Notes under the pieces: model-generated
What the model saw: the letters and a program-made list of their open reading frames with translations, nothing else
The model's database searches: none
What the model was told of the DNA's origin: nothing
From: Escherichia coli
Lineage (GTDB): Bacteria; Pseudomonadota; Gammaproteobacteria; Enterobacterales; Enterobacteriaceae
Direction: 5' to 3' (one strand)
Assembly: GCF_003334305.1 (NCBI RefSeq)
Contig: NZ_QOWS01000035.1
DNA length: 31,024 bases
Made by a program: the position numbers and the translations under genes
Part shown: one piece after another, positions 30,700 through 30,928 of the stretch
Numbering within the stretch: position 1 is the first letter of the stretch
Layout of the letters: each line of letters begins with the position of its first letter

Positions 30700-30785
30700 A
30701 AACCAACCTGTCAGAAGTTTTCTACAAACATTTTCACCCCGCGATCGCGAGGCAAACCAAATCGAAACGCGTATTAGCTTTTCGG

Positions 30786-30820
30786 ATTATACGCCCTCAA
30801 CAGAGCCTGTCTCAGCAATG
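30786..30820 (-). promoter_or_regulatory. candidate secE-nusG promoter
   Basis: Minus strand GAGGGCG-TATAAT-CC (plus attata at 30786-30791) with a weak -35 about 17 nt upstream, roughly 90 nt before the secE ATG. Confidence 0.4.
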
Positions 30821-30869
30821 ATTATGACAAAGAAAATCACTGATGAGCCAGGTTCTGGTACGAAAGCGT

Positions 30870-30898
30870 GCAAAAAGGGCATCAAATGATGCCCTTTT
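30870..30898 (-). terminator. tufB intrinsic terminator
   Basis: Minus strand AAAGGGCATCA-ttt-GATGCCCTTT followed by TTTGCACG, about 30 nt after the tufB stop; a T-run on the plus side as well. Confidence 0.8.
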
Positions 30899-30928
30899 AG
30901 TGCGCATTGCGTCAAATGTTATCGGCAA

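Follow-up and report, generated by a model that had tools for sequence, protein, structure and literature searches.

The window analysed here, a stretch of 31,024 nucleotides of Escherichia coli DNA, ends in the tufB/secE-nusG/rplKA region, where sequence, translation and RefSeq annotation place every gene on the minus strand; gene identities were taken from the RefSeq annotation of identical DNA. The 3' end of the tufB coding sequence, encoding EF-Tu, occupies 30929-31024 with the stop codon TAA at 30931-30929, and secE (30316-30699) begins with the ATG at 30699-30697. Positions 30700-30928 are the whole 229-nt tufB-secE spacer, no more and no less. Directly before secE, the spacer ends in the invariant sequence ACAGGUUGGUUU (30711-30700, minus strand), which holds the likely ribosome-binding site. 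The spacer equals the MG1655 sequence without a mismatch (MG1655 genome coordinate = 4,208,057 minus window position), and the single nearby base that differs from MG1655 lies at window 30598, within secE. At 99% identity or more the spacer is found in 5,420 of 5,426 complete E. coli genomes. It is near-invariant within the species, with one A/T SNP at 30719; B2-type strains, for example LF82, carry T instead of A at this position, in an unstructured portion of the leader. The sole match at 96% comes from an assembly with frameshifted tuf and secE. Variation within E. coli thus has no power to discriminate between readings of the spacer.

Two open reading frames within the spacer, of 42 and 38 amino acids and with TTG starts, were rejected as non-coding: they span the terminator and the long hairpin described below, and the alignment is indel-rich. 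An Rfam search of the region returned no family at threshold; the only sub-threshold matches, STnc320 (21.5 bits; gathering score 50) and Thr_leader (20.5 bits; gathering score 55), were rejected as well. The locus is already known, the junction having been dissected in 1990 and in 2019. The only new points are coordinates for RNase III cuts, as inferred from public Term-seq data, and numbers on conservation that support the placement of the secE-nusG promoter.

On the plus strand the spacer contains the hairpin GGGCATC-AAAT-GATGCCC (30877-30894), whose perfect 7-bp stem closes a loop of 4 nt; AAAAA (30872-30876) stands before it and TTTT (30895-30898) after it, just as the original prediction had described. 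The 31-kb window contains a single GC-rich perfect 7-bp hairpin flanked by at least four A and at least four T, and none of 100 dinucleotide shuffles contains any. The mRNA strand, which is the minus strand, reads ACUAAAA-GGGCAUC-AUUU-GAUGCCC-UUUUUGC, with the 5' arm at 30894-30888, the loop at 30887-30884 and the 3' arm at 30883-30877. Five of the seven pairs are G-C. The A-tract AAAA (30898-30895, the T4 of the plus strand) lies just 5' of the stem, and directly 3' of it follow the U-tract UUUUU (30876-30872, the A5 of the plus strand), G30871 and C30870. The stem-loop alone has a dG of -11.5 kcal/mol on either strand. Within a 51-nt context the fold z-score is -4.3 for the mRNA strand and -6.3 for the opposite strand, none of 200 shuffles folding as well. 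The A-tract can pair with the U-tract, and in the predicted folds these A-U pairs lengthen the terminator stem to 11 bp.

Adams et al. (2021) report, in their Term-seq supplement, an RNA 3' end at MG1655 4177187. Coordinate mapping places this end at C30870, 7 nt beyond the stem and 59 nt beyond the tufB stop codon. The locus therefore presents what is expected of an intrinsic terminator, a GC-rich stem-loop and a U-tract with a 3' end at the expected distance of about 7-9 nt from the stem, downstream of a gene: the hairpin at 30877-30894 is the intrinsic terminator of tufB on the minus strand, which bears out the assignment made beforehand. The Rho table of Adams et al. lists no bicyclomycin-sensitive site in 41771xx-41773xx, absence from such a list being weak evidence. 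A consensus terminator scan missed the tufB terminator on both strands, likely because the pairing between A-tract and U-tract was counted as stem, using up the T run; such a scan rule may systematically overlook terminators with A-tract flanks.

A consensus promoter scan of the minus strand identified a site on the same DNA, with TTGACG at 30915-30910 as the -35 box, an 18-nt spacer and CATCAT at 30891-30886 as the -10 box (9 of 12 consensus positions). The -10 box takes in four bases of the terminator stem together with loop bases 1 and 2, and the A-tract falls inside the promoter spacer. CATCAT matches the consensus at only four of six positions and the spacer is 18 bp long; the second base of the hexamer is A and the sixth is T. 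From this geometry, transcription is predicted to start at about G30880, within the 3' arm of the terminator. Folding of a transcript that begins at 30880 showed that the long hairpin further downstream is retained and that the terminator cannot form.

To extend the comparison beyond E. coli, 66 loci were fetched with SecE as the anchor, the tuf-to-secE spacers were extracted and those of 30 Enterobacterales were aligned. They comprise 23 non-Morganellaceae species (Enterobacteriaceae, Erwiniaceae, Pectobacteriaceae, Yersiniaceae and Budviciaceae) and 7 Morganellaceae, which were compared separately. TTGACG is 100% conserved in the 23 species, and the terminator hairpin, loop included, is 96-100% conserved; loop positions 1 and 2 (A30887 and T30886), which belong to CATCAT, reach 100%. 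The first 11 nt after TTGACG are 26-83% conserved, whereas the distance from TTGACG to the stem is exactly 15 nt in every one of the 23. A distance that is fixed while its sequence is free fits a promoter spacer. The distance from the tuf stop codon to TTGACG ranges from 2 to 37 nt across the same species. Under uniform consensus rules, TTGACG-18-CATCAT was called in 23 of 23 species and was the sole recurring promoter-like site, showing the features of a sigma-70 promoter: two hexamers at a spacing of 16-18 bp, with hexamers and spacing conserved and the spacer sequence not. Kinship among the 23 species could inflate the apparent constraint, though the variable spacer argues against this.

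Most likely, the conserved secE-nusG promoter sits inside the tufB terminator and not 100 bases downstream of it. The original prediction had placed a secE promoter in this spacer, with a 5' end near 30780; the spacer does contain one, at a different position. We take the conserved promoter to be the P_EG of the older literature. A promoter of this name in the tufB-secE spacer, a transcript of ~1.2 kb and RNase III processing of its leader were reportedly described by Downing et al. in 1990. From a start at about 30880 to the end of the nusG terminator at 29695 is ~1.19 kb. In the start-site tables of Yan 2018, Kim 2012 and Cho 2014 we found no entry for secE.

The seven Morganellaceae are without the TTGACG/CATCAT promoter. 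They retain the stem, the loop reads AACA, as in Photorhabdus, or else AACT, GATA, AAAT or ATCT, T30886 is kept in just 29% of them and the -35 box is degenerate. Because the stem persists while the loop varies, the loop is not required for termination. A clade-specific block, AAGTCAGATACAAT, is present in Morganellaceae after the long hairpin, ~120-150 nt upstream of the secE start codon (alignment columns ~420-440), and may be a relocated promoter. Outside the Enterobacterales, all eight gammaproteobacterial loci compared carry a tRNA-Trp gene between tuf and secE, and this gene is absent from the Enterobacterales spacers. The distribution agrees with the report of Brandis et al. (2019) that the overlap of terminator and promoter arose on loss of that tRNA gene.

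The long hairpin carries at its 3' foot a perfect TATAAT (30791-30786, minus strand), a better -10 box than CATCAT and about 100 nt downstream of it; this hexamer would give a 5' end near 30779. Terminator and promoter could on this basis be separate elements, the hairpin ending tufB alone and secE-nusG being transcribed mainly from this hexamer. With CTGAGA or GAGACA as the -35 box, 16-18 bp away, the site scores 10 of 12, above the score of the upstream site, and it is invariant within E. coli. However, the hexamer is not conserved between species (13-52% identity at positions 2-4), and under the uniform rules a promoter-like site was called at this place in E. coli alone among the 23 species. 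For a -35 box the site would have to use the 3' arm of the long hairpin, a conserved element without a TTG, and in other genera insertions of 50-130 nt adjoin this very point. Nor is the motif in excess over chance, with six TATAAT found in the window and 6.4 expected. Brandis et al. (2019) also put the secE-nusG promoter at the terminator. We therefore regard separate elements as unlikely, and the 5' end near 30780 anticipated from TATAAT is not supported; the hexamer is possibly a minor E. coli-specific promoter or a chance match. All six TATAAT of the window (224, 7976, 11141, 28423, 29609 and 30786) lie on the minus strand, which encodes the whole cluster. The insertions, seen in five loci of Erwinia, Rouxiella and Shimwellia (alignment columns 262-400), separate the foot of the long hairpin (GGCGT) from the small hairpin that follows, exactly at the place of the E. 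coli TATAAT.

Between the terminator and the small leader hairpins, the transcript is predicted to fold into a long imperfect hairpin of 29 bp (30869-30791, minus strand; dG -35 kcal/mol), which the original prediction had overlooked and which we read as an RNase III processing site. The spacer as a whole folds better than its shuffles (z = -5.25) because of this hairpin. It is conserved in 27 of 27 aligned species: 92% of the alignment cells are paired, a share that falls to 30-45% on sliding the partners. Compensatory changes occur at four pairs, one of them being G-C in 16 species and A-U in 11. The wild-type Term-seq data of Adams et al. (2021) contain two further 3' ends, at 4177212 and 4177245. 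These correspond to window 30845 and 30812, on opposite arms of the predicted helix, and would leave exact 2-nt 3' overhangs on both cleavage products. A 2-nt 3' stagger is a hallmark of RNase III. The helix is at least about two turns long and the presumed cuts are staggered with 2-nt 3' overhangs, as expected of an RNase III site; we infer that RNase III cuts between 30845/30844 and 30812/30811. The mature 5' end of secE-nusG is then predicted at G30811, with a leader of 112 nt. Gordon et al. (2017) count 'tufB' among the known RNase III sites and give it an rnc/WT read ratio of ~30; the reference list of that paper includes Downing 1990. The conservation of the long hairpin in Morganellaceae suggests that it may also serve RNA from tuf. 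Two other readings of the hairpin were rejected. Descent from the lost tRNA-Trp gene was considered, but by eye the hairpin does not resemble it, and a boxA-like GGCUCU matches at just 5-6 bases, which themselves close the helix at its foot.

Further along the leader, two smaller hairpins are predicted. The first, CGAAA...UUUCG (30784-30763), appears in the folds and in the alignment, is CCGAA/UUCGG in most other genera and has large insertions just upstream in some genera; E. coli is offset by one register there in the alignment used for pair counting. The second, UUUGCCUCGC-GAUC-GCGGGGUGAA (30756-30733), is conserved across Enterobacterales, its consensus fold having nine pairs, four of them with compensatory changes. 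It was flagged by the scan as an attenuator and rejected as such, no Term-seq 3' end being mapped in 41773xx, after the hairpin. The processed 112-nt leader (30811-30700) might itself be an undescribed cis-regulatory RNA that tunes translation or stability of secE-nusG, for example in feedback through NusG/Rho. It has the two conserved hairpins, the second of them covarying, and the invariant ACAGGUUGGUUU before the AUG, and the region is covered by no Rfam family; we hold such a role to be quite unlikely. A regulatory leader would also imply a function of the long hairpin other than trimming, given its conservation in Morganellaceae, which have lost the overlapping promoter.

The original prediction also held that the terminator hairpin can act on transcripts from either strand. 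Bidirectional intrinsic terminators are said to have been found between convergent genes in the SEnd-seq work of Ju, Li and Liu in 2019, and they share with the hairpin described here a GC-rich stem flanked by an A-run and a T-run. A true bidirectional terminator at this place would end the tufB mRNA and also antisense transcripts running from the secE side toward tufB. Its anatomy is indeed symmetric: A5 and T4 flank the stem, whose energy is the same for either strand, and the U-tract scores 3.75 in the sense and 3.34 in the antisense direction. To this extent the structural part of the prediction was right. Its use on the antisense strand is a different matter. The flanking genes tufB and secE are co-directional, not convergent, and the consensus scan found no promoter-like site on the plus strand in 28500-31024. 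Across three growth conditions, no antisense 3' end is listed in 4177100-4177399, all three listed ends being sense. Moreover, the A-run that would supply the antisense U-tract is interrupted in 11 of the 23 species, where GAAGA, GGAAA or GAAAG replaces it, whereas the sense U-run TTTTT is kept in 22 of 23. Upstream A-tracts are frequent in one-way terminators, where they lengthen the stem, and the 11-bp stem of the fold explains the A-run better as such an extension. We thus consider termination in both directions very unlikely.

It is highly improbable that TTGACG and the loop are conserved for an RNA function of the tufB 3' UTR, as a 3'-UTR-derived small RNA or a protein-binding site, in place of a promoter: although the 59-nt 3' UTR ends in a strong hairpin and U-tail, as such small RNAs do, and weakly matches a Salmonella sRNA model in Rfam (21.5 bits, E = 0.37), that score falls far short of the gathering score (50), UUGACG takes part in no conserved pairing, the interval between TTGACG and the stem varies in sequence and never in length, which fits promoter geometry rather than that of an RNA seed or helix, and genetic data of Brandis et al. 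(2019) tie this DNA to secE-nusG transcription.

The tufB terminator, the overlapping P_EG, the long hairpin cut by RNase III and a negative coupling of the two operons together make up, very probably, a single explanation of the junction. According to this model, polymerase coming from the thrU-tyrU-glyT-thrT-tufB operon would release its RNA at about C30870 by Rho-independent termination. The sigma-70 promoter of secE-nusG would occupy the same 50 bp, its -10 box drawing on the 5' arm and the loop of the hairpin, and transcripts starting at about G30880 would lack the 5' arm and form no terminator. These transcripts, and any read-through from tufB, would fold into the 29-bp hairpin at 30869-30791, and the staggered RNase III cut would give transcripts of either origin the same mature 112-nt leader, beginning at G30811. 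Since one piece of DNA serves as both terminator and promoter, polymerases that come in from tufB would occlude P_EG, so that the operons would be coupled negatively and not by read-through.

Functional data from Salmonella are consistent with this coupling. According to Brandis et al. (2019), a stronger promoter before tufB lowers secE-nusG mRNA, at a cost of 8% in fitness (growth) that is rescued by overexpression of nusG. More transcription into the terminator thus gives less secE-nusG mRNA, which fits occlusion and indicates that read-through contributes little; in E. coli itself occlusion presumably operates as well. The original prediction was correct in that the terminator isolates the tufB unit from secE-nusG, the two units being kept largely separate, whereas the effect it expected of read-through, a coupling of the two, has the opposite sign in Salmonella. 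The junction sets the level of NusG, an essential partner of Rho, relative to EF-Tu production, and disturbing it in Salmonella costs ~8% of the growth rate. More generally, tightly packed operon junctions may hide a promoter within a terminator, and the visible 5' end of an mRNA there may have arisen by processing, so that an attractive TATAAT further downstream can mislead.

RNase III also processes leader hairpins of rpsO-pnp and rnc. Like the transcript described here, these have a long imperfect helix in the 5' leader and a staggered double cut with 2-nt 3' overhangs; in sequence they are unrelated to the long hairpin at 30869-30791. Gordon et al. (2017) include pnp among the known RNase III sites. 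The P_EG/RNase III locus of E. coli studied by Downing, Sullivan, Gottesman and Dennis (1990, J Bacteriol 172:1621) is the same locus as the present one and is not known to differ from it, and later papers on the secE-nusG operon include Downing 1990 among their references.

A close counterpart is the work of Brandis, Cao and Hughes (2019, Mol Biol Evol 36:1990) on operon concatenation, the accessible portion of which describes an overlap of the tufB terminator with the secE-nusG promoter in Salmonella, assigned from sequence analysis and not from start-site mapping. The overlap is given there as conserved in Enterobacterales, lost in Morganellaceae and arisen with the loss of a tRNA gene upstream of secE, and all three patterns are reproduced by the present alignment. 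The two studies differ in that the functional tests in that portion were made in Salmonella, not E. coli, and that it mentions neither RNase III nor the long hairpin. It lists nusG-rplK as a second terminator-promoter overlap. In our window the nusG terminator forms a hairpin at 29731-29699 (region 29699-29736, minus strand), with a Term-seq 3' end at 29695 (Adams et al., 2021), and a sigma-70-like TGCACA-16-TACAAT, the putative rplK promoter, lies within that hairpin. Compared with tufB/secE, the sequence is different and the -10 box lies in the larger loop region of a 14-pair stem. Such terminator-promoter overlaps, as Brandis et al. (2019) argue, keep ancient operon clusters together.
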